Source of the DNA: Parcubacteria group bacterium
GTDB lineage: Bacteria > Patescibacteriota > Minisyncoccia > SW-4-49-11
Assembly (NCBI GenBank): GCA_943354045.1
Contig: CALRBF010000001.1
Coordinates: forward strand, 343,598-407,597
Length of the DNA stretch: 64,000 nt
Direction: 5' to 3'
Each line of letters starts with the position of its first letter. Positions within the stretch are counted from its first letter, which is position 1. The notes under the pieces are model-generated. The model was not told the origin of the DNA. It saw only the letters and a list, made by a program, of their open reading frames with translations, and made no database searches. The position numbers and the translations under genes were made by a program. Below are positions 8,091 through 63,498 of this stretch, piece after piece.

Positions 8091-9143
8091 CTAAGCCTCT
8101 AAAACAGTATAAACTAATTCCAAAGGATAATGTTTTTCTTGAATTTGGTTTATGACAGTTTGGATTTTTGACAAAAGAGAGCTATTCTCTTTTGGTATGG
8201 TGAACAAAAGTATAAATGGATTATCTTGATTGATATACTCGCAACTAAATCCTTCAGAGCTAGAGGCTATATCTATTGCTAATTCAATATTTTGCATAAT
8301 TTGGTTAGAAGTTTGTCCACCGGCATAAATATTAAACATTGGAACTTCTAAATTTTCTTCTAATTCAGCGCCATTGAGTAGGGGGTTGAAGTTTACAATT
8401 GCTCCAAAAGCATGATGTAGATTTTTGGAATGTAATTCTTGAAAATGAAAGTGATGTGTTCGGACAGAGACTGCAGAATTTTGCTCTTGTAGTCTAGTGG
8501 TCAGAATACTAGCAAAACCAGAAGCATATTGCTCACTGGCTGAATCTAGGACTTTATCTTGATTTTGGAATTTATCTAAAATTTTACTCAAAACTTGCTT
8601 AGAACTTTTGTTAGTTAGAGTGTGAGCTACGGCTCCACATTTTGAGTGAGATGAGACTACAATTTCCTCAATAGTTGGATTATCTTCACATACAGAGATT
8701 ATATTATCTACCATTTGTAATTTTTCCTCGGCTGACATTAGGCATTCACAACCAGGAATTCCAAGTGATAAAGCATGATGAGAAGCGGTTAAATATTGTA
8801 TTCTCTCATCAATACAAGGTAACCAAATCATTTTTGGCCTTTTTACTAGACTATCTTTGAGAATTTTGTCTAAATGTAATTTGTATGTATACTCTGACTT
8901 ATATTTTGTCCCATCAAGATGCAAAAACCCTTTTACCCCTAAAACTTCAGATACAGGGTTGCTATATAACAGATTATGATAAGTTTGAGCATATTTTGCC
9001 CACTCTACACTACGATAAGAATCACAAGAGTTATCAACAGAATTTGCTGACGATATAATTTGGGCTGGCAAACGAAGAAGTGTGCCAAGAGAAGATATTC
9101 TAGACATAAATAAAAACAAATAATAGGACAAAGCCCAATACAA
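8091..9143 (-). CDS. hypothetical protein with beta-carbonic-anhydrase-like zinc-site motifs
   Basis: CIDER (CxDxR) followed about 57 aa later by HSKCGAV (HxxC), the spacing seen in beta-CA. Long N- and C-terminal extensions. The true start may be an internal Met. Confidence 0.3.
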   Translation of the reverse strand: MYWALSYYLFLFMSRISSLGTLLRLPAQIISSANSVDNSCDSYRSVEWAKYAQTYHNLLYSNPVSEVLGVKGFLHLDGTKYKSEYTYKLHLDKILKDSLVKRPKMIWLPCIDERIQYLTASHHALSLGIPGCECLMSAEEKLQMVDNIISVCEDNPTIEEIVVSSHSKCGAVAHTLTNKSSKQVLSKILDKFQNQDKVLDSASEQYASGFASILTTRLQEQNSAVSVRTHHFHFQELHSKNLHHAFGAIVNFNPLLNGAELEENLEVPMFNIYAGGQTSNQIMQNIELAIDIASSSEGFSCEYINQDNPFILLFTIPKENSSLLSKIQTVINQIQEKHYPLELVYTVLEA

Positions 9144-9261
9144 ATAACAATTATTTTAAGACTTGTCTATTATAAACCTAAGAGGGGGTTTTTGTAAAGG
9201 GTATATATCAAAAAAATAACAATATATATAAATAATGAAATATACGATATAATAAAGTCAT

Positions 9262-9894
9262 ATGAAGTATTTACTTATACATGGATATGGTATTGGTTTA
9301 CAATACTCTTTTTTTAAATCAGCAGAAGGAGAAAATGCTGGTTTTGGAGCTTTTGAGGATTTGATTATAGTGGGTGAGGCGAAAGTTTTTCGTTGGGAAA
9401 TAGCCCGTAAATTAAGTTTTATAGAGTCAATAAACCTGAAACTCAATATAAAACAATATGATATTGAAATGTTAAAGACGGAGAATCAAGAAGTATATGA
9501 TAGCTTACAAAAAGAATTAGAGTCAACAAAACCAGAAATAATAGTTTGTCATTCAGCAGGAAGTTCTTTGTTATTAAACTATCTTACCAATCATATATTA
9601 CCCCCTTCTGTGAAAAAAATTGTATTTATTCAAAGTAATATTTCACAGAATAGGTTGTTCCCAGAATATTTACAAGCAAAGTTACAAAAAAAAGAGATAA
9701 AATTGATAAATATGTACTGTTATTGGGATCAGGCTTTATGGTCTCTCATTTTGATTGGAAGACATATATCTATTGGATTATTCGGGAGTAAAAACACATA
9801 TGTACAAAATATATTCTTCCCCCTATACAAAAGGTTAAATTTACACACATCATCAATTAATGATATCAAAATATTTCCGTTTATTGAGGGGTGA
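9262..9894 (+). CDS. hypothetical protein, possible alpha/beta hydrolase; C-terminus encoded by a dnaE-end-derived repeat copy
   Basis: Nucleophile-elbow-like VCHSAGSS. The last about 20 codons overlap the repeat at 9833-9894. Confidence 0.3.
   Translation: MKYLLIHGYGIGLQYSFFKSAEGENAGFGAFEDLIIVGEAKVFRWEIARKLSFIESINLKLNIKQYDIEMLKTENQEVYDSLQKELESTKPEIIVCHSAGSSLLLNYLTNHILPPSVKKIVFIQSNISQNRLFPEYLQAKLQKKEIKLINMYCYWDQALWSLILIGRHISIGLFGSKNTYVQNIFFPLYKRLNLHTSSINDIKIFPFIEG
9833..9894 (+). repeat. Partial copy (right half) of the about 100-bp dnaE-3'-end-derived repeat
   Basis: TTAAATTTACACACATCATCAATTAATGATATCAAAATATTTCCGTTTATTGAGGGGTGA is near-identical to 11795-11855 and 12674-12734. Confidence 0.85.
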
Positions 9895-54822: not shown

Positions 54823-55734
54823 TTAGAAACAGTGTTTGGGGTTGTTCTGAATAAATTGCAGGAGCATTTCTCCTAGGGGGATATGGCTTGGGATAAGATT
54901 CTCCTTAAAGGTATCAAGAGATATCCAATGAAGTTTATCGATATCATCGCCAGGTTCAGGTCGCCCAAAAATGTAGCGAGCTACAAAAAAACGAGTCATA
55001 ATACCGTCTCGCGTTTTTTTATAACGCCAGTCAGTAATACGGGTAGATCCAAGATAATGCCAATCAGCAACCTCAAAACTACCAGCCTCTTCTCGTAATT
55101 CTCGCTTAGCCGCAGCTTCATCAGAGATGTCTGTGTTATCCACAAATCCTCCGAAAAATCGAAACTTACCTTCATCCTGATATTTTTCCGCAAGTAAAAC
55201 CTGACTAGGTCTTATAACTGCAATATCAACCGTGCTATAGGTTTGGGGTGGGCGATTTTGTACTGCATGAATAACTCCCTGTCTCCAGGCGGTGGATTTA
55301 CCAATACGGTCACGAGTTATGGTGCGATACTTTGTCCCATTATAATCCCTGTAATTAGGAATGGTGATTATTGGATAACAACCACTATAATAGGGGATAA
55401 ATGAATCTCGGCCACCATAAAGTGTTACTATCGAATTTCTTGCAATACCAGCTATAAGATGATCAAGTTGCCGAGACCAAATATAGTCACTTGGATGATC
55501 AAACTGCTCAAGAATAATCGCATTTGGATATTCTTGAGCAATCATCTGAGCCCTGGCTGCAAAAGAAAGGGGGTCTTTATCTGAGGCAAGTCCACGGCTA
55601 CTACCAAGAATAATAAGAAGTCTCTCATGCTCAGACATAGCTGCCTCAATAATTCGATGATGTCCTGGATGTAGTTTTGCCACTTGAAAGCGACCAACTA
55701 CCACTCCAAGAGATGAGGGGGGAAGAACTACCAT
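54823..55734 (-). CDS. nadM: Bifunctional NMN adenylyltransferase / ADP-ribose pyrophosphatase (Nudix)
   Basis: Nucleotidyltransferase motif VVVGRFQVAKLHPGHH (HxGH). C-terminal Nudix box GGFVDNTDISDEAAAKRELREEAG. Confidence 0.8.
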   Translation of the reverse strand: MVVLPPSSLGVVVGRFQVAKLHPGHHRIIEAAMSEHERLLIILGSSRGLASDKDPLSFAARAQMIAQEYPNAIILEQFDHPSDYIWSRQLDHLIAGIARNSIVTLYGGRDSFIPYYSGCYPIITIPNYRDYNGTKYRTITRDRIGKSTAWRQGVIHAVQNRPPQTYSTVDIAVIRPSQVLLAEKYQDEGKFRFFGGFVDNTDISDEAAAKRELREEAGSFEVADWHYLGSTRITDWRYKKTRDGIMTRFFVARYIFGRPEPGDDIDKLHWISLDTFKENLIPSHIPLGEMLLQFIQNNPKHCF

Positions 55735-55762
55735 AGGATTACCATTTGTGAAAGAACATTAA

Positions 55763-55849
55763 CACTACTTAGTGTAACTAATACATTTAGTAAAGTTAAA
55801 AAAAGAAGTGTTAATTTAGATAGTGTATCAAATACAATAAGTATTGTCA
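55763..55849. promoter_or_regulatory. Candidate NrtR operator(s) upstream of nadM-nadV
   Basis: Perfect palindrome ACACTA-CT-TAGTGT (55763-55776). The 19-mer ATACAATAAGTATTGTCAA (55831-55849) recurs inverted at 56635-56653 in the nrtR/pnuC divergent region. Confidence 0.4.
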
Positions 55850-55880
55850 AATATATAAAAGGATTATGGATATAATCCTT

Positions 55881-56585
55881 TTATAGGACTTCTATTTCTT
55901 CAACTTTTTTTGAAGTCATACGATATAATTCTGCTGGTCGAAAGGCTCCATTTGCTCTTTTTTTACCAGTAGATTTTACAATATCAAGCTTGAGTATTTT
56001 TTTACGAAAATTACGTCTATCGAGATCATTTCCCAATATACTTTCAAAAGCTCTCTCTAATTCAGTAAGCGTAAATTCACGAGGAAGTAGTTGTCCTATT
56101 AGGGTAGTATAATGGACGCGAGAAGCCAATCTCTTTAATGCTGTTGCGAGAATTTCATCATGATCATATGCCAAATGTTTAGCAGTATGTACCGGTGACC
56201 AATAAATTGATCCTTTACTATCCTTTTCTTTAGTAGTTAATTTATCTTCTGAAATTAATCCAATATATCCAACAGCCACAACTCGTCCACGTGGATCACG
56301 ACTAATATTACTAAATGTAAATAGTTGCTCTAAATATACTTTTTTTGAATTAATATATCCTTTTTCATCAATAATACGGCGAGCTGCTTCTTCTGCAATT
56401 TCATCAGGACGAATAAGTCCACCAGGTAATCCAGGCTGATGTACAAAGTGTGGGGGACGATTGACTGTCATAAGTCTGACATATAAAGCCCCATCAAATA
56501 TAGTAAAAAGGACAATATCAGTAGCAAGTATTGCAAAGCGTAATGGGGTAGGGTTTTCTGGAGAATTAATAGGAGATTTTTTCAT
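55881..56585 (-). CDS. nrtR: NrtR-like Nudix-related transcriptional regulator of NAD metabolism
   Basis: N-terminal Nudix-like domain (GLPGGLIRPDEIAEEAARR, degenerate Nudix box). C-terminal winged-helix domain. Located between nadM/nadV and pnuC/nadR. Confidence 0.65.
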   Translation of the reverse strand: MKKSPINSPENPTPLRFAILATDIVLFTIFDGALYVRLMTVNRPPHFVHQPGLPGGLIRPDEIAEEAARRIIDEKGYINSKKVYLEQLFTFSNISRDPRGRVVAVGYIGLISEDKLTTKEKDSKGSIYWSPVHTAKHLAYDHDEILATALKRLASRVHYTTLIGQLLPREFTLTELERAFESILGNDLDRRNFRKKILKLDIVKSTGKKRANGAFRPAELYRMTSKKVEEIEVL

Positions 56586-56634
56586 ATAAACTCACTTTAT
56601 CATGCGATATTCTAGATGTCAATAATACAATAAC

Positions 56635-56668
56635 TTGACAATACTTATTGTATATAGTACACTAAGTA
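56635..56668. promoter_or_regulatory. Candidate NrtR operator in the nrtR / pnuC-nadR divergent intergenic region
   Basis: TTGACAATACTTATTGTAT (56635-56653) is the exact reverse complement of 55831-55849. TACACTAAGTA (56658-56668) matches the half-site at 55766-55776. Confidence 0.4.
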
Positions 56669-56692
56669 TATTATTAATTTAATTGTATCATT

Positions 56693-57397
56693 ATGACTAC
56701 TGATATTCGTCCTATAAAAGCTCTTATTGGAACTAGATATGAACATATTGAATCTGTGAAGGTAGCCGTGGCTATGGCTATAGTTGTATTCATATATGAA
56801 GCTATTTCATCATTTATTATACCAGATTTCCAACTAAATTGGTTTGAAATTATTGGTACTTGGACTGGACTTATATGTGTTTGGTTAGCAAGAACTCAAA
56901 ATATCCTTACATGGCTGTGGGGAATTATAAGTGTTGGGCTCCTTGGGTATTTCTTTGCCACAATAGGCCTTCCAGGACAACAATGGCTAAATTGGGGATA
57001 TTTCCTTATTATTCAGTTTTGGGCCTGGCCTCAATGGGCTTTTGGAGGTAAGCAAGCAACTGTACTACCTGTTACTCTTCTTACCAATAAAGCAAGATTA
57101 ATTCTTCTAGCAATAGCTTTACTAGCTACAGGTGTTATTTATTTTTTGATAGATATTATTGTCCCCGGATCAACTCTCCCATTATTGGATGCAACTGTTG
57201 TCGCAAGTAGTATAGTGGCTCAGTATTTACTTGGTCTCAAAAAAGTAGAAAGCTGGGTATTATGGCTAGGACCAGTTAATCTCCTCTCTATTATATTATT
57301 CTTTATAGCAGGGGCGTATACGGTAATGGCTCTCTATATTGCTTATTTCATCCATGCTATATGGGCCTTAAGAACTTGGTATCAAGAAGCGCGTTAA
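56693..57397 (+). CDS. pnuC: Nicotinamide riboside transporter PnuC
   Basis: 7-8 TM, W-rich motifs (WLNWGYF, QFWAWPQW) typical of PnuC. Confidence 0.8.
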   Translation: MTTDIRPIKALIGTRYEHIESVKVAVAMAIVVFIYEAISSFIIPDFQLNWFEIIGTWTGLICVWLARTQNILTWLWGIISVGLLGYFFATIGLPGQQWLNWGYFLIIQFWAWPQWAFGGKQATVLPVTLLTNKARLILLAIALLATGVIYFLIDIIVPGSTLPLLDATVVASSIVAQYLLGLKKVESWVLWLGPVNLLSIILFFIAGAYTVMALYIAYFIHAIWALRTWYQEAR

Positions 57398-57407
57398 TTA
57401 TACGAAT

Positions 57408-58373
57408 ATGTTTTACAATGGACTTGTAATTGGTAAATTTTACCCACCACATAAAGGACATAAATTCCTTATTGATACGGCGCAAAAAATGAGTGAAAAT
57501 CTAACCATTATTATTTGTGCTAAAGATAATGAAACTATTCCAGGAACTTTACGAGCGCAATGGCTATCACAAATACATCCTAAAGCTAAAATCATATTGA
57601 TCAATGATAATAAATTGGCTGATGATGATTCAGAAGGTTGGGCAAAATATACTGTAGATATACTAGGATTTGTACCAGATGCTGTTTTTACATCAGAAGA
57701 TTATGGAGATCCATATGCTCATTTTATGGGAAGTATACATGTACTTGTAGATAAAGAGCGTGCCACTATTCCGATATCAGGGACATTGGTGCGTAATAAC
57801 CCTACAAAATATATAAAATTTCTTGAACCAAATGTGAGAGCATATTTTACAAGAAGAATTGTAGTATTAGGGGCTGAATCAACGGGTACGACAACTTTAG
57901 CTAAAGCATTAGCACAGTATTATAATACGGTATGGGTGCCTGAATATGGACGATATTTTAGTGAAGGAAAACGTTTTGTAGGATATGGTGAAGGGGATTG
58001 GACTACTGCAGAATTTGTAGCTATTGCCAAAGCCCAAGCAAAATTTGAAGATTCTCTCGCTGAATCAAGTAAGGGGATAGTGATTTCTGATACTGATGCT
58101 TTTGCTACAGCTATTTGGCATGAAAGATATTTAGGTTTTCGTGCTCCAGAAGTAGAAGCAATCTCCGCTAATAGAAGAGTAGATCTCTATATAATAACAG
58201 GAGATGAAATTCCTTTTGAAGATGATGGACTTCGCGATGGGGAAAATATTCGACATGAATTGCACCAACTTTTTATTCAGCGTGTCATAGAAAGTAAAAA
58301 GCCATATATTATAGTACAAGGTAGTGTAGAAGAACGGCTACAAGTTGCGGTAGAGGCTATATATAAACTTTAG
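57408..58373 (+). CDS. nadR: NadR-type NMN adenylyltransferase / ribosylnicotinamide kinase (no HTH domain)
   Basis: HxGH motif GKFYPPHKGH; P-loop GAESTGTTTLAKALA of the RNK domain. Confidence 0.8.
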   Translation: MFYNGLVIGKFYPPHKGHKFLIDTAQKMSENLTIIICAKDNETIPGTLRAQWLSQIHPKAKIILINDNKLADDDSEGWAKYTVDILGFVPDAVFTSEDYGDPYAHFMGSIHVLVDKERATIPISGTLVRNNPTKYIKFLEPNVRAYFTRRIVVLGAESTGTTTLAKALAQYYNTVWVPEYGRYFSEGKRFVGYGEGDWTTAEFVAIAKAQAKFEDSLAESSKGIVISDTDAFATAIWHERYLGFRAPEVEAISANRRVDLYIITGDEIPFEDDGLRDGENIRHELHQLFIQRVIESKKPYIIVQGSVEERLQVAVEAIYKL

Positions 58374-58382
58374 GAAATATAA

Positions 58383-59106
58383 AAGAGGAGACAAAAACCT
58401 CCTCTTTTATATTTTGGCTCCGGAAGCTGGACGACGTTCGAACCTTTGAGTGGGGGATATAGGTACTTACCTCACCCCTTTCTCACTATAGTTTTGGAGA
58501 AATGAAAAAGCCCCCGCAGTGGCGGGGGTGTGTGCTGAGTAATTGCTACTCAGGGGGTTTTCAAAGTTTCCCCAAGTTTTTGGCCTACTTGATGTAATGC
58601 GACAGCTGGCCACAGTGCAGTTGTACCTAGACCTATCACTAGTTGGGATCTAGATAGCTCTCCTTTCGGGAATTCTGGGCCAAAGGCACCTATACCGACG
58701 GAAAAACCGACCCCCAGTAGTGAGTATGACACTGAGTATGACACCAATACGATCCATGGAAATAGATCGATGGACTTTGCTGGTGCTTCTGGAGCAGTGG
58801 GGGTTGGGCTCTCAGTAGTCATTGGGAATAACGAACATTAGCAAGAATAACATACCACATTTTCCCAATTTTGTCAATATCAAACAACATTATATTCTAA
58901 CTTATACTTTACTTATATATAAACCAAAAAACAGCTAAAATAAGCCGTTTAAAGGGAGCGGGCTCCGCGAGTAGGATTGCAAACCAGTCGTGAATGAGAT
59001 TCACTCCTTGGAACCACTCGGTTCCAATACCTCCACCACGGGAAACTCCCGTTTCCCGACCCCTTCCCCAGGTTCTCATCCTACTCTCTCAAAAGACAAG
59101 AAATAT
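58383..59106 (-). repeat. Tandem unit A (724 bp): terminator + tRNA-3'-end-like element E + small 2-TM ORF + promoter + pseudo-3'-exon fragment
   Basis: Near-identical in organisation and sequence to unit B (59107-59889). The terminator AAAGAGGAGACAAAAA(C/T)CTCC..TTTT is identical to the one following the real tRNA at 59890-59916. Confidence 0.75.
58550..58822 (-). CDS. small hypothetical 2-TM membrane protein (unit A)
   Basis: 90 aa. N-terminus MTTESPTPTAPEAPAKSIDLFPWIVL and C-terminus ALHQVGQKLGETLKTP are identical to the unit B paralog. Own terminator hairpins downstream. Confidence 0.4.
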   Translation of the reverse strand: MTTESPTPTAPEAPAKSIDLFPWIVLVSYSVSYSLLGVGFSVGIGAFGPEFPKGELSRSQLVIGLGTTALWPAVALHQVGQKLGETLKTP

Positions 59107-59889
59107 AAAAGAGGAGACAAAAATCTCCCCTTTTATATTTTGGCTCCGGAAGCTGGACGATGTTCGAACCTTTGAGTGGGGGGTATAAGTACCTACCTCA
59201 CCATCTCCTCACTATAGGTTGGGAGAAATAAAAAGCCCCCGCAGTGGCGGGGGTGTGTGCTGAGTAATTGCTGCTCAGGGGGTTTTCAAAGTTTCCCCAA
59301 GTTTTTGGCCTACTTGATGTAATGCAACAAATGGCCACGCAGCGGTGATACCTGTTATCACTACTGTCTGGGGCAGTGTGAGTAGTTCTTGCGGGTATCT
59401 TGAACCTAAGATACCCTTGGTAAAACCTATTCCCAGCATTGTGTATGATGCCAATACGATCCATGGAAATAGATCGATGGACTTTGCTGGTGCTTCTGGA
59501 GCAGTGGGGGTTGGGCTCTCAGTAGTCATTGGGAATAACGAACATTAGCAAGAATAACATACCACATTTTCCCAATTTTGTCAATACCAAACAACATTAT
59601 ATTCTAACTTATACTTTACTTATATATAAACCAAAAAACAGCTAAAATAAGCTGTTTAAAGGGAGTGGTCTCCGCGAGTAGGATTGCAAACCAGTCGTGA
59701 ATGGGATTTACTCCTTGGAACCACTCGGTTCCAATACCTCCACCACGGGAAACTACCATTCCCATCAATCCCCCCACACCCCGTCTCGGACACCTACGGT
59801 TTCCGACACTCGGAGTAAACTCCTCGCTGCCTTCCTGTCCAGGGGGACTGATACCCCTTCCCCAGGTTCTCATCCTATACTCTCTCAAA
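59107..59889 (-). repeat. Tandem unit B (783 bp), paralog of unit A
   Basis: See unit A. Confidence 0.75.
59275..59529 (-). CDS. small hypothetical 2-TM membrane protein (unit B)
   Basis: 84 aa, paralog of 58550-58822. Confidence 0.4.
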   Translation of the reverse strand: MTTESPTPTAPEAPAKSIDLFPWIVLASYTMLGIGFTKGILGSRYPQELLTLPQTVVITGITAAWPFVALHQVGQKLGETLKTP

Positions 59890-59974
59890 AGATAAGAAAT
59901 ATAAAAGAGGAGACAAAAATCTCCCCTTTTATATTTTGGCTCCGCGAGTAGGATTCGAACCTACGACCAATCGG

Positions 59975-60530
59975 TTACACCTTATCCAAGTATTTCTACA
60001 AGGCGTGGACTATATCATCATCCATCATAGTGATGGAGCGAGGCGCTTCCACTGTATTGCTACAATGTACTCCCTTGCGGGATAGTCTCTGAACCTTCCT
60101 GAGATTTCTCAGGCTTGGCTGCTGATTTCCATAATGTTTCCATCTTAGGGTTCCAGCAATTCACCTCGTGTTTCAACTTCTGTTACCAGAAGAAGCTGCA
60201 ACTAGACCCGCATGAATTTCTTTGTGGCAGTTAGAGCATACCAATACACATTTATCGAGTTCATCTTTCATTTTATCCCAAGATCTTGTAATTCCTTTAT
60301 AGGATATTCCAAAGTCTTTTTGATTGGGATCAGTGTGATGAAATTCTAATGCATCTGTACAGGTATTGTATCCACATAAGGAGCATTTATCTCCCAAGTA
60401 AGATACAGCTTTTTTCTTGAGAAGTTTTCTTCTCTGAGAAACTGCATTTTTAAGATATTCAGCACGATCAGAATATTTTCTTTTGCCAGGCATACTAATA
60501 TAATTAGGTGTACGATGACTCAAGAAGGTA
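59975..60530 (-). mobile_element. Group I intron (about 556 nt) carrying an HNH homing endonuclease ORF
   Basis: Conserved R element GGTTCAGAGACTA (60083-60095, minus) and S element GATATAGTCC (60007-60016, minus) form P7. A candidate IGS GCAGCC is complementary to the exon end GGCUGU with a U-G wobble. Confidence 0.7.
60173..60493 (-). CDS. HNH homing endonuclease (intron-encoded)
   Basis: CSLCGY..EFHHTDPN..CVLVCSNCHKEIH is an HNH/zinc-finger motif. The start is chosen at MPGKRK; the ORF-track start at 60535 is the tRNA anticodon GTG itself. Confidence 0.7.
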   Translation of the reverse strand: MPGKRKYSDRAEYLKNAVSQRRKLLKKKAVSYLGDKCSLCGYNTCTDALEFHHTDPNQKDFGISYKGITRSWDKMKDELDKCVLVCSNCHKEIHAGLVAASSGNRS

Positions 60531-60616
60531 TTCACAGCCGACTGCTCTACCGCTGAGCTATCGCGGAATTAGATTTGAAAGGTACTTGTATATTGTACCG
60601 AATAAGAGAGATATAG

Positions 60617-61141
60617 TCAAGATAAGGCTATAAGGTATTTAGTTGCTCTTCCGGATATTGATTTATGAGTATCTTTTTGGAATTTTTGAAGTCTTGGAAT
60701 AAGCCATTCAGTTAATGGGGGATTATCTTTACTCCAAGTGAATAATGTCTCCATAGTGGTATTGATTACAATCCAATCCTTATGGGTATCGAGATTATGT
60801 TTGAGATGCTGTATGGCAAGGTCTTTTTGTTCTATAGTTAGAGATGGTGATAATAATCGAAATAGGGTAGCTAAAGTCCATTGGGTGGATGCTTGATTAA
60901 TCTTGGTAATTTTTGAGAGTAATATATCGGTGTATGGATATATCCAGTCTGGATGTTCTTTGCATATGCGTTTTAGGGCATTAGAAACACGCAGTCTTAC
61001 CACTTCATCAGATGATGAATAGGTGTCTAATAATTCGGCTACTCTTTTTTTATCTTGAAGTATTAACTCTACCACTTCTAATGTTCGTCCCAGTGAGTTT
61101 GGGTGGCCACCTGTTAACATTTTTTCAAATGATTCACTCAT
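60617..61141 (-). CDS. DNA alkylation repair protein (AlkD/AlkC-like HEAT-repeat glycosylase family)
   Basis: MSESFEKMLTGGHPNSLGRTLEVVE... resembles the DNA_alkylation family. The start is chosen at the internal Met to avoid overlap with 61172. Confidence 0.55.
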   Translation of the reverse strand: MSESFEKMLTGGHPNSLGRTLEVVELILQDKKRVAELLDTYSSSDEVVRLRVSNALKRICKEHPDWIYPYTDILLSKITKINQASTQWTLATLFRLLSPSLTIEQKDLAIQHLKHNLDTHKDWIVINTTMETLFTWSKDNPPLTEWLIPRLQKFQKDTHKSISGRATKYLIALS

Positions 61142-62205: not shown

Positions 62206-63498
62206 ATGCCAAAATTCCAATTACCATCTGGATTTATTGAATATACTCCTGAAGAGCAGGTGAAATTTAATTATATATTGGATACTATTCGAGAAGAATA
62301 TGAACATGCAGGATTCGCTCCTATAGAGACGGCTTCTATTGGATATTCGGAGGTAATTCTCGCTAAAGCTGGAGGAGAATTAGATAAAGAAATATATCGT
62401 TTTCAAAAAGGGGATAGAGATTTGAGTTTACGCTTTGATTTGACGGTGCCATTAGCTCGCTACATAGCTGAGCATAATCGTAATATGGTGTTACCTGCCA
62501 AAATATATCAAATTGGCAAATCCTGGCGAGCTGAAAAACCACAAAAGGGGAGATATAGAGAATTATATCAGGCTGATATCGATATTATTGGTAATAATAG
62601 TAGGCTAGCTGAGGCTGAGATGTTGTCTGTTATTCAGAATGTTTTTGCAATTTTAGAATTGCCAGCAATTACCTTTAGAGTTAGTAATCGTAAAATTCTT
62701 GCGGGGTTATTGGATTCATATGGTATTACCGATATAGCTTCAATTCTGAGAATTGTAGATAAAAAAGCTAAATTATCTGAGGCGGATTGGATACAAGCTC
62801 TCAGGGATATACAAACTCCAGATTTAGCAATAGATACATTATTAAGTTTATTTGAAAATGGGAAAAATAATCAAGAAATAGGTAAATTATTACAGCAACA
62901 GAATATCGATAATAATTTGTATCAAGAGGGAATACAAGAGCTTGAAGAATTTGTTAAATATTTAGAGTTATTTCACGTTAAAAGCTATGTTATAGATATC
63001 TCGATTGTAAGAGGGCAGGATTATTATACAGGAACAGTATTCGAGAGTTTTCTTGCAGGACTAGAGTCTTTTGGAAGTATTTGCTCTGGAGGTAGATATG
63101 ATAATTTGGTGGGACATTATATCGATACTCCTATTACGGGATTTGGAGCTTCTATTGGAGTAAGTCGTCTATTTGGAATTCTGCGAGAACAGGATTGGTT
63201 CCAAGAAATTCAATATGGAGATACTACTAAGATAGGCGTATTCCTATTAAATGAGGATACTGTGGAGGATGATATCAAGTCAATTATTGCACTCCGAGAT
63301 GAGCAAGGAATAGCTTTTGATTTATATCCAGAAATTACCAATTTCAAAAAAGCCTTACAATATGCTAATCGTAAAAATTATACGGAGGCTATATTCTTTG
63401 GAGCTGATGAAGCGAAAGCCGGAGAGGTACTTATTAAAAATATGGAATCAGGAGAGCAGGTAATTGTATTGGTTGGGGATTTGGGGGAGATTGAGTAA
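62206..63498 (+). CDS. hisS: Histidyl-tRNA synthetase
   Basis: Class II motifs: LRFDLTVPLARY (motif 2 region), GGRYDNL (motif 3), C-terminal anticodon-binding domain. Confidence 0.85.
   Translation: MPKFQLPSGFIEYTPEEQVKFNYILDTIREEYEHAGFAPIETASIGYSEVILAKAGGELDKEIYRFQKGDRDLSLRFDLTVPLARYIAEHNRNMVLPAKIYQIGKSWRAEKPQKGRYRELYQADIDIIGNNSRLAEAEMLSVIQNVFAILELPAITFRVSNRKILAGLLDSYGITDIASILRIVDKKAKLSEADWIQALRDIQTPDLAIDTLLSLFENGKNNQEIGKLLQQQNIDNNLYQEGIQELEEFVKYLELFHVKSYVIDISIVRGQDYYTGTVFESFLAGLESFGSICSGGRYDNLVGHYIDTPITGFGASIGVSRLFGILREQDWFQEIQYGDTTKIGVFLLNEDTVEDDIKSIIALRDEQGIAFDLYPEITNFKKALQYANRKNYTEAIFFGADEAKAGEVLIKNMESGEQVIVLVGDLGEIE

Follow-up and report, generated by a model that had tools for sequence, protein, structure and literature searches.

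The 64-kb stretch of DNA analysed here (the window) carries on its minus strand a tRNA gene in two parts. With an intron search, ARAGORN reports a split tRNA at c[59937,60567] with an intervening sequence of 556 nt, the sole tRNA found in the 64 kb; without an intron search it reports no tRNA across the window, and neither run gives a second tRNA of any type. The 5′ part reads UCCGCGA-UA-GCUC-AGCGGUA-GAGC-A-GUCGG-CUGU and the 3′ part UAA-CCGAU-UGGUC-GUAGG-UUCGAAU-CCUAC-UCGCGGA-G-CCA, and all four tRNA stems pair, for example the acceptor (UCCGCGA/UCGCGGA) and the anticodon stem (GUCGG/CCGAU). The tRNA halves therefore lie where an earlier note on this DNA had placed them. Between them are a group I ribozyme and an open reading frame (ORF) with an HNH signature that runs into its 5′ end. 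We read the locus, with high confidence, as a tRNA-Asn(GUU) gene split between anticodon positions 35 and 36 by a group I intron, subgroup-IA-like and predicted to be mobile, whose P1 loop accommodates a gene for an HNH homing endonuclease.

As the amino-acid label that ARAGORN gives across homologs varies (Asn, Thr, Ser, Leu, His or Pro) and is unreliable, we relied on a comparison of junctions among loci. More than 550 loci with relatives of the ORF were found in species-representative genomes, and 80 of them were fetched. At 70 of the 80, ARAGORN places the ORF inside a split tRNA of the window's layout; L036 has the same layout broken off at a contig end, which brings the total to 71. Such a recurrence is far beyond chance. 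The 71 distinct split-tRNA sequences include the window's own allele, from same-species contigs (L001-L004). In every one of them CTGT closes the 5′ exon and G is the last intron base, after which come TAA and the anticodon stem. The ligated loop is thus CUGUUAA, which gives the anticodon GUU (Asn) and places the intron between positions 35 and 36. Exons ligated at this junction are called tRNA-Asn(gtt) by ARAGORN, and they are identical at 75 of 75 positions to the intronless tRNA-Asn(GTT) genes of L090 and L093, metagenome contigs of close relatives in which the downstream context is as in the window.

The 3′ boundary can also be read from the ribozyme. We aligned 57 ribozyme segments, from just after the last HNH His codon to the first 3′ exon bases. 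Of the two P9.0 column pairs, 305/335 is A-U in 45 introns and G-C in 9, and 306/334 is C-G in 35, A-U in 9, U-A in 8 and G-C in 3. This covariation with J7/9 shows that the base preceding the terminal G is intronic. The Asn(GUU) junction, which the earlier note had preferred, was thus the right one, fixed by the 71-locus junctions, the P9.0 covariation and the intronless alleles.

The same comparison bears on two other assignments of the gene. If the host gene were tRNA-Thr(UGU), the intron would lie at positions 33/34, and this is what ARAGORN with introns reports for the window, tRNA-Thr(tgt) i(33,556); the local sequence CU/GUG...GG/UGUAA of this copy is compatible with U at -1 and with G as the last intron base. 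Of the 57 homologs, however, only 36 would have a terminal G at the Thr junction, whereas all 57 have one at the Asn junction. What would be base 34 covaries, through P9.0, with a base of the intron that lies just 3′ of P7, and the Thr product has two mismatches to the intronless alleles of L090 and L093, which read GTT. The U1-A72 pair together with G73 presumably fits E. coli tRNA-Asn, which we also count against tRNA-Thr. ARAGORN and tFind are documented to mislabel these tRNA-Asn genes as Thr(UGU) with an intron at 33/34, and the sequenced spliced product of a homolog has the 35/36 junction (PMC13011429). We consider a tRNA-Thr gene extremely unlikely.

A tRNA-His(GUG) gene, functionally tied to hisS, would take the GUG of the unspliced 5′ half as the true anticodon. 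The 5′ half reads CUGUGAA, ARAGORN calls His when the 5′ loop is joined straight to the 3′ stem, and hisS lies inside the window (62206-63498). For such a junction, nevertheless, the intron would have to end in A, and the exon end would break the group I rule. GUG is not conserved among the homologs, in which CTGT is followed by G, A or T; G-1 is not encoded, and the intronless alleles are Asn. We therefore give practically no credence to tRNA-His, and the link to hisS raised in the earlier note finds no support, as hisS is 1.6 kb off on the opposite strand with three ORFs between.

The intron of this tRNA-Asn gene matches the Rfam group I model (RF00028, Intron_gpI) at 60224-59986 (-) over model positions 1-253 of 253, with 73.3 bits against a gathering score of 50 and an E-value of 1.1e-16, and this is the only Rfam match in the whole window at gathering thresholds. 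The consensus fold of the 57 introns (RNAalifold) contains 42 pairs, 37 of which show compensatory double changes; these cover P2, P3, P4, P5, P6/P6a, P8, P9 and P9.0. GCAGC, AGAGACU, A.AGUCC and the terminal GUAA are invariant blocks. The Rfam check and the compensatory changes behind the P3-P9 fold thus bear out the group I intron that the earlier note had recognised, and the R and S elements that it had picked out are both present, with cores (AGAGACT and A.AGTCC) that do not vary in the homologous introns.

Between P7 and the 3′ strand of P3 are two hairpins, assigned to P7.1 and P7.2 by position and hairpin sequence, whose region (60050..60082) shows up in the alignment to the Rfam model as 35 inserted nt. 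In 46 of the 57 homologs this place is occupied by a segment of at least 30 nt. Six introns are without it (L047, L054, L063, L064, L066 and L073), of which two are labelled Omnitrophota, one Melainabacteria, one Patescibacteria and two otherwise. The hairpins are at the subgroup IA position and are consistent with the published IA assignment, as a likeness in placement and not a formal classification.

The 3′ strand of P1, the internal guide sequence, was located by its position. GCAGC(U/C) stands directly 5′ of P2 in 57 of 57 and 69 of 69 homologs, and in ORF-bearing homologs the distance from the last HNH His codon to GCAGC is always 8-17 nt. Relatives without an ORF, like the intron spliced in vitro, have GCAGC 5-11 nt behind the splice site, where it forms a compact P1 hairpin. 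Since the guide of the ORF-less relatives lies just past the splice site in an ordinary P1, the HNH ORF of the window is best described as having been inserted into the P1 loop. U(-1), GCAGC in the guide and the terminal G do not vary among the 57 introns. GCAGCC at 60122-60117, which had been proposed as the guide from the window alone, was rejected: it is the end of P4′ and the start of P6, it pairs and covaries with other partners, and the hexamer occurs in only 26 of the 57 homologs.

The open frame with the HNH signature spans 60173-60535 (-). The N-terminus of the family, M-x-D-K-R-K-Y-S-D-R, is conserved and begins at an ATG about 30 nt into the intron, which fixes the start at ATG 60493. 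A start at the GTG made up of G34, U35 and the first intron base, as suggested in the earlier note, was rejected as a coincidence, since the frame is open and in register back to this codon in only 8 of the 71 loci. The HNH ORF itself proved real. It has 177 homologous proteins in a large protein collection, the family being 100-115 aa long, and CxxC, HH, N, CxNCH and H, all present in the window copy, show little or no variation among 35 diverse relatives. C37, C40, H52, C86, N88, C89 and H90 are invariant among these relatives, and H53 and H94 are at least 90% conserved. The Pfam HNH model (PF01844) is matched by 26 of the 35; the 106-aa form scores 21.5 bits against a cut-off of 21.4, and the 120-aa form with the GTG start 20.9 bits. 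A search of NCBIfam gave no model for the ORF. Profile searches of solved structures gave weak matches to HNH domains only (a group II intron maturase, E 0.001; McrA, 0.03), and no extra DNA-binding domain is recognisable in the protein. The last nine codons of the ORF and its stop, GCA GCU UCU UCU GGU AAC AGA AGU UGA, run through the guide and P2.

Table 1. Positions of the split tRNA-Asn gene, its intron and neighbouring features in the window
Feature	Position	Strand	Basis and remarks
tRNA-Asn 5′ exon, 34 nt	60534..60567	-	Acceptor 5′ strand, D arm, anticodon stem 5′ strand, C32 U33 G34 U35; ARAGORN
Group I intron, 556 nt, between anticodon positions 35/36	59978..60533	-	RF00028; 71-locus junctions, P9.0 covariation, intronless alleles
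tRNA-Asn 3′ exon, 41 nt	59937..59977	-	U36 A37 A38, anticodon stem 3′ strand, variable loop, T arm, acceptor 3′ strand, G73, CCA encoded; ARAGORN
HNH homing-endonuclease ORF (predicted), 106 aa + stop	60173..60493	-	In P1 loop; 177 homologs, invariant motifs, Pfam HNH
Internal guide sequence GCAGCU (3′ strand of P1)	60194..60199	-	Pairs exon GGCUGU, U-G wobble at 5′ splice site
Ribozyme body (Rfam model)	59986..60224	-	cmscan alignment; RNAalifold on 57 introns
P2 hairpin CUUCUG-GUAA-CAGAAG	60177..60192	-	Column pairs 25-29/39-43: 4 to 33 sequences changed on both sides
P3	60168-60164/60043-60039	-	cmscan and RNAalifold
P4	60158-60153/60125-60120	-	cmscan and RNAalifold
P5	~60149-60129	-	cmscan and RNAalifold
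P6	60119-60117/60095-60093	-	cmscan and RNAalifold
P6a	60113-60108/60103-60098	-	cmscan and RNAalifold
J6/7 and P7 5′ strand (R element, GGTTCAGAGACTA; GGUUCAGAGACUA)	60083..60095	-	AGAGACU invariant 57/57; aligned to model UUCAaAGACUA
P7.1 UCCC-GCAA-GGGA	60082-60071	-	Between P7 and P3′; assigned by position and hairpin sequence
P7.2 CAUUGUA-GCAA-UACAGUG	60067-60050	-	Between P7 and P3′; assigned by position and hairpin sequence
P8	60037-60031/60027-60021	-	cmscan and RNAalifold
J8/7 and P7 3′ strand (S element, GATATAGTCC; GAUAUAGUCC)	60007..60016	-	A.AGUCC invariant 57/57; GACUA/UAGUC complementary
P9	60003-59986	-	cmscan and RNAalifold
Last three intron bases, GU and terminal G (59978)	59978..59980	-	GU pairs AC 60006-60005 = P9.0; terminal G invariant 57/57
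Predicted sigma-70-type promoter TTGACT, 17 nt spacer, TACAAT	60592..60620	-	Consensus scan, 10/12 matches; ~25 nt upstream of tRNA position 1
Predicted terminator hairpin	59897..59936	-	Directly after CCA; 18-pair stem then T run (terminator scan)
Insert downstream of tRNA-Asn, ~254 nt	59939-59686	-	CCA, long terminator hairpin, GC-rich block
Second copy of the insert	~59143-58963	-	
Central ~89 nt of first GC-rich block	~59852-59764	-	Presence/absence polymorphism
Tandem repeat, ~707-726 bp unit, 2.x times	58356-59953	-	
Small hydrophobic ORF, 84 aa	59275-59529		
Small hydrophobic ORF, 90 aa	58550-58822		
NAD salvage cluster	54823-58373		Adjoins the locus
Nudix/NMN-adenylyltransferase-like ORF	54823-55734		
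NrtR-type regulator	55881-56585		
PnuC transporter	56693-57397		
NadR-like kinase/adenylyltransferase	57408-58373		

In the clade to which the window belongs, the tRNA exons are identical or near identical and the locus occurs in three allele states. The site is empty, without an intron, in L089, L090 and L093; it holds the intron with an intact ORF in the window and in L087 (89% protein identity); and L091 (c[8991-9393]) and L095 ([258-662]) carry the window's intron from which about 228 nt, equivalent to window 60451-60222, have been cleanly deleted. This deletion takes out the HNH core and leaves the first ~14 codons, the guide and the ribozyme, the last with compensatory changes in P5, P6 and P9. 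On their sequences, L091 and L095 represent the endonuclease-decay stage of the homing cycle, and the empty, occupied and ORF-deleted alleles taken together match the textbook cycle in which an intron invades, its endonuclease decays and the element is lost.

The gene is flanked by a predicted promoter and a predicted terminator (Table 1). The role of the promoter is inferred; its sequence is kept in the sister locus L087. Since the gene has this promoter and a strong terminator, the window holds no other tRNA, and the exons are identical to those of intronless alleles, we argue that the tRNA-Asn gene is in use.

Several observations weigh against our reading of the locus or limit its support. 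P1 and P7 are invariant, so that covariation cannot test them, and because the P1 bases never vary the support for P1 is positional only. Covariation between the guide and the variable anticodon-stem bases was sought among the homologs and none was found: the stem variants GACUGU, AGCUGU and CGCUGU occur with no compensating change in the guide, and in loci with such stems P1 may be only 4-5 bp. The P9 of the window has two U-U mismatches. The Pfam HNH score exceeds its cut-off marginally, and what places the host among the Patescibacteria from sequence is a single named HisS relative and the labels of the HNH homologs.

The mismatches in P9 would also suit a decaying relic, in which the intron is unspliced or the tRNA unused and tRNA-Asn comes from another gene. 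Introns with homing-endonuclease genes are expected to decay, as in L091 and L095, and our view is that of a 64-kb window of the genome. Against a relic, the exons have remained 100% identical to the intronless alleles of relatives whose flanks are only 80-93% identical, all positions that are invariant across the 57 introns are kept in the window, and the ORF is intact with every catalytic residue present. The flanking promoter and terminator and the lack of a further tRNA in the 64 kb point the same way, and genomes seldom hold both intron-containing and intronless copies of one tRNA (PMC13011429). We regard a relic as very unlikely.

As for the protein, an HNH homing endonuclease is favoured over one that is not, or is no longer, a homing enzyme and serves as a maturase or is a domesticated or inactive nuclease. 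NCBIfam holds no model of this HNH family, the solved structure that its profile matches best is an HNH domain from the maturase of a group II intron, and the overlap of the ORF with P1 and P2 links protein and RNA. The His, Asn and four Cys residues that are invariant in the 35 diverse relatives nevertheless form the pattern of an active nuclease, and ORF-less versions of the intron exist, one of which self-splices without a protein. That tRNA genes nearly identical to one another differ in having the intron and the ORF fits homing and decay, and free-standing copies of the HNH gene beside tRNA-Asn, one of them beside an intronless gene, fit a DNA target at tRNA-Asn. A protein that does not home is, on this evidence, unlikely. 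From its family and from the presence/absence pattern among close relatives, we infer that the HNH protein most likely cuts intronless tRNA-Asn genes in homing.

These elements suggest the following course of events. A precursor of about 630 nt would be transcribed from the gene's own promoter. P1, with its U-G wobble at the splice site, would form between the exon end GGCUGU and the guide GCAGCU, which lies 334 nt further downstream, and the P2-P9 core, which covariation supports, would fold. An external guanosine would then attack after U35, and the terminal G, placed by P9.0, would enter the P7 pocket, so that the exons are joined to give the loop CUGUUAA; both steps are modelled on those seen in vitro in a homolog whose ribozyme is 63% identical (PMC13011429). 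The 106-aa HNH protein, translated from ATG 60493, would cut an intronless tRNA-Asn gene near the DNA of the anticodon loop, and repair would copy the intron in. Translation would probably be in competition with the folding of the ribozyme on one and the same RNA, since the guide and P2 are overlapped by the last codons of the ORF.

A patescibacterium is the probable host of this DNA. Among named relatives of the HisS encoded in the window, the nearest (69% identity) is labelled Candidatus Paceibacterota and the next ones are at ~45%; the named HNH homologs are from lineages of the candidate phyla radiation (CPR), and the G+C content of the window is 35%. Among the matches listed, the best identity of the HNH protein to species-representative genomes is 68%. 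HNH-bearing tRNA-Asn introns also occur in bins that are not labelled Patescibacteria and that carry, as deposited, the labels Omnitrophota (L063, L064, L073 and L081), Elusimicrobia (L079), Nitrospira (L076), Melainabacteria (L066) and Bacteroidota (L038, L048 and L078).

In 9 of the 80 loci the HNH gene is free-standing beside tRNA-Asn and has its own extended -10 box (TGGTATAnT-type). Four of these genes lie upstream of, and on the same strand as, a tRNA-Asn with an ORF-less intron of ~175-234 nt (L053, L057, L067 and L075), four are divergent from a tRNA-Asn with an ORF-less intron (L010, L035, L037 and L039), and one lies upstream of an intronless tRNA-Asn (L049). In a rough neighbour-joining tree the free-standing copies are interspersed among the intron-borne ones, a pattern that suggests several moves of the endonuclease, either into the intron or out of it. 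We tentatively propose, at slightly less than even chances, that the HNH-bearing tRNA-Asn intron is a highly active and widespread mobile element, and not a rare and nearly immobile one. If so, these loci would provide a natural series for the pathway from collaborative homing to a mobile intron on an essential bacterial tRNA gene.

The surroundings of the tRNA gene are themselves repetitive. The insert that directly follows tRNA-Asn has three parts, namely the CCA, a long terminator hairpin and a GC-rich block with a G+C content of 56% (35% in the window), and a second copy lies further downstream (Table 1). The insert reaches as far as a displaced tRNA 3′ end, a copy that is slightly degenerate (GGTTTGC-AATCCTACTCGCGGAG); the window contains the 16-mer AATCCTACTCGCGGAG three times, whereas chance would be expected to give none. 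In L087 the site is empty, and the tRNA 3′ end runs straight into the old flank ACTCCCTTTAAACAGC. The insert looks like the att-type integration of a small ORF-less element, or the remnant of one. Since the GC-rich block also follows the intronless tRNA-Asn genes of L089, L090 and L093, it is independent of the intron. Rfam at a relaxed E-value gave only chance-level matches in the downstream repeat region, the fold z-score of the GC-rich block is -2.0, and a comparison of the block with viral contigs gave no match. The central ~89 nt of the first block are present in L091, L094 and L095 and absent from the second window copy, from the same-species assemblies L001, L085 and L086, and from L089, L090 and L093; this segment may be a nested insertion.

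These elements form part of the tandemly repeated unit listed in Table 1, which runs in the order hairpin, GC-rich block, displaced tRNA end, terminator, TTGACA/TATGTT promoter, small hydrophobic ORF and terminator. The ORFs of the units begin MTTESPTPTAPEAPAKSIDLFPW, and each unit ends in the tRNA-like GGTTCGAACATCGTCCAGCTTCCGGAGCCA. A set of 5.8 billion clusters contains only three relatives of the small hydrophobic protein, and these are all of this lineage. The adjoining cluster for salvage of nicotinamide adenine dinucleotide (NAD) encodes an ORF of the Nudix/nicotinamide mononucleotide (NMN)-adenylyltransferase type, a regulator, a transporter and a NadR-like protein; as predicted, it shows that the organism imports nicotinamide riboside, and it is ordinary.

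The intron class and its splicing are already published, and the window is a further example. Nakagawa et al. (mSystems 2026) describe group I introns at position 35/36 of tRNA-Asn(GUU) as typical of Patescibacteria, some with HNH genes, and assign them to subgroup IA; a homolog self-splices precisely in vitro, the ligated tRNA was sequenced, and a terminal G-to-C mutant loses exon ligation (PMC13011429). The statement in the earlier note that such introns are uncommon is thus out of date. The window shares with these introns the host tRNA, the 35/36 site and the Thr(UGU) 33/34 mislabel by ARAGORN, and its P7.1/P7.2-type extension agrees with the IA assignment. Its ribozyme is 63% identical over 211 nt to that of the intron spliced in vitro, with the core blocks and both junction contexts conserved. 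The spliced intron is ORF-less and 234 nt long, whereas the intron of the window has an ORF in L1 and comes from a different, uncultured lineage. Four tRNA-Asn introns of that study carry PF01844 HNH genes; its WWE3 example (GCA_000503835.1) is locus L045 of our homolog set. The main text of the tFind preprint mentions neither Asn nor endonucleases. Where tRNA finders miss the gene or call it tRNA-Thr, a genome seems to lack tRNA-Asn and estimates of completeness are distorted, a point made in PMC13011429.

That study counted 12 introns with homing-endonuclease genes among 333, in complete genomes only, found those at 35/36 of subgroup IA only in Patescibacteria, and inferred that transfer is infrequent, with the authors' caveat that draft genomes might alter this picture (PMC13011429). 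Set against these few endonuclease-bearing introns and the limited mobility deduced for them are the more than 550 HNH relatives found here in draft genomes, with gain, loss and decay in one clade. What is new is modest: the HNH-bearing form is much commoner than that study reported, some relatives have free-standing HNH genes next to tRNA-Asn, which PMC13011429 does not mention, and empty, occupied and ORF-deleted alleles occur in one clade. That the HNH form is common, and that three allele states exist in one clade, argues against the published inference of rare movement.

Among other bacterial tRNA introns, the classic cyanobacterial ones are of subgroup IC3, and the Anabaena/Nostoc tRNA-Leu and Azoarcus tRNA-Ile introns belong to the same subgroup and are without P7.1/P7.2. 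Subgroup IC dominates bacterial tRNA introns overall (PMC13011429). The Anabaena/Nostoc tRNA-Leu(UAA) 34/35 and Azoarcus tRNA-Ile introns are ORF-less and ~200-250 nt long (PMC3984707), and their sites are 34/35 or 36/37, compared with 35/36 in the window. A further comparison is with the cyanobacterial tRNA-fMet group I intron that encodes I-Ssp6803I, as far as it is summarised in PMC3984707 and PMC13011429, which cite Bonocora and Shub (2001). By these accounts, both it and the window's intron are bacterial anticodon-loop group I introns with a homing endonuclease of their own, and the target of I-Ssp6803I is the anticodon region of the intronless tRNA gene; the two systems differ in that the former is in tRNA-fMet at 33/34 and its enzyme is of the PD-(D/E)XK family, not HNH.

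The HNH homing endonucleases of phages, some free-standing and some intron-borne, with T4 mobE and homing of the trans or 'collaborative' kind as examples (PMC2790892, PMC3984707), likewise combine an HNH nuclease with a group I intron, and a free-standing HNH gene beside tRNA-Asn resembles the free endonuclease and ORF-less intron of the collaborative homing model (PMC3984707). The hosts here are bacterial chromosomal tRNA genes, in contrast to the protein-coding genes of phages, and the protein is minimal (100-115 aa), with an activity predicted from its sequence. A nuclease of 106 aa and a target gene of 75 nt would make a tractable system for homing in bacteria with reduced genomes.

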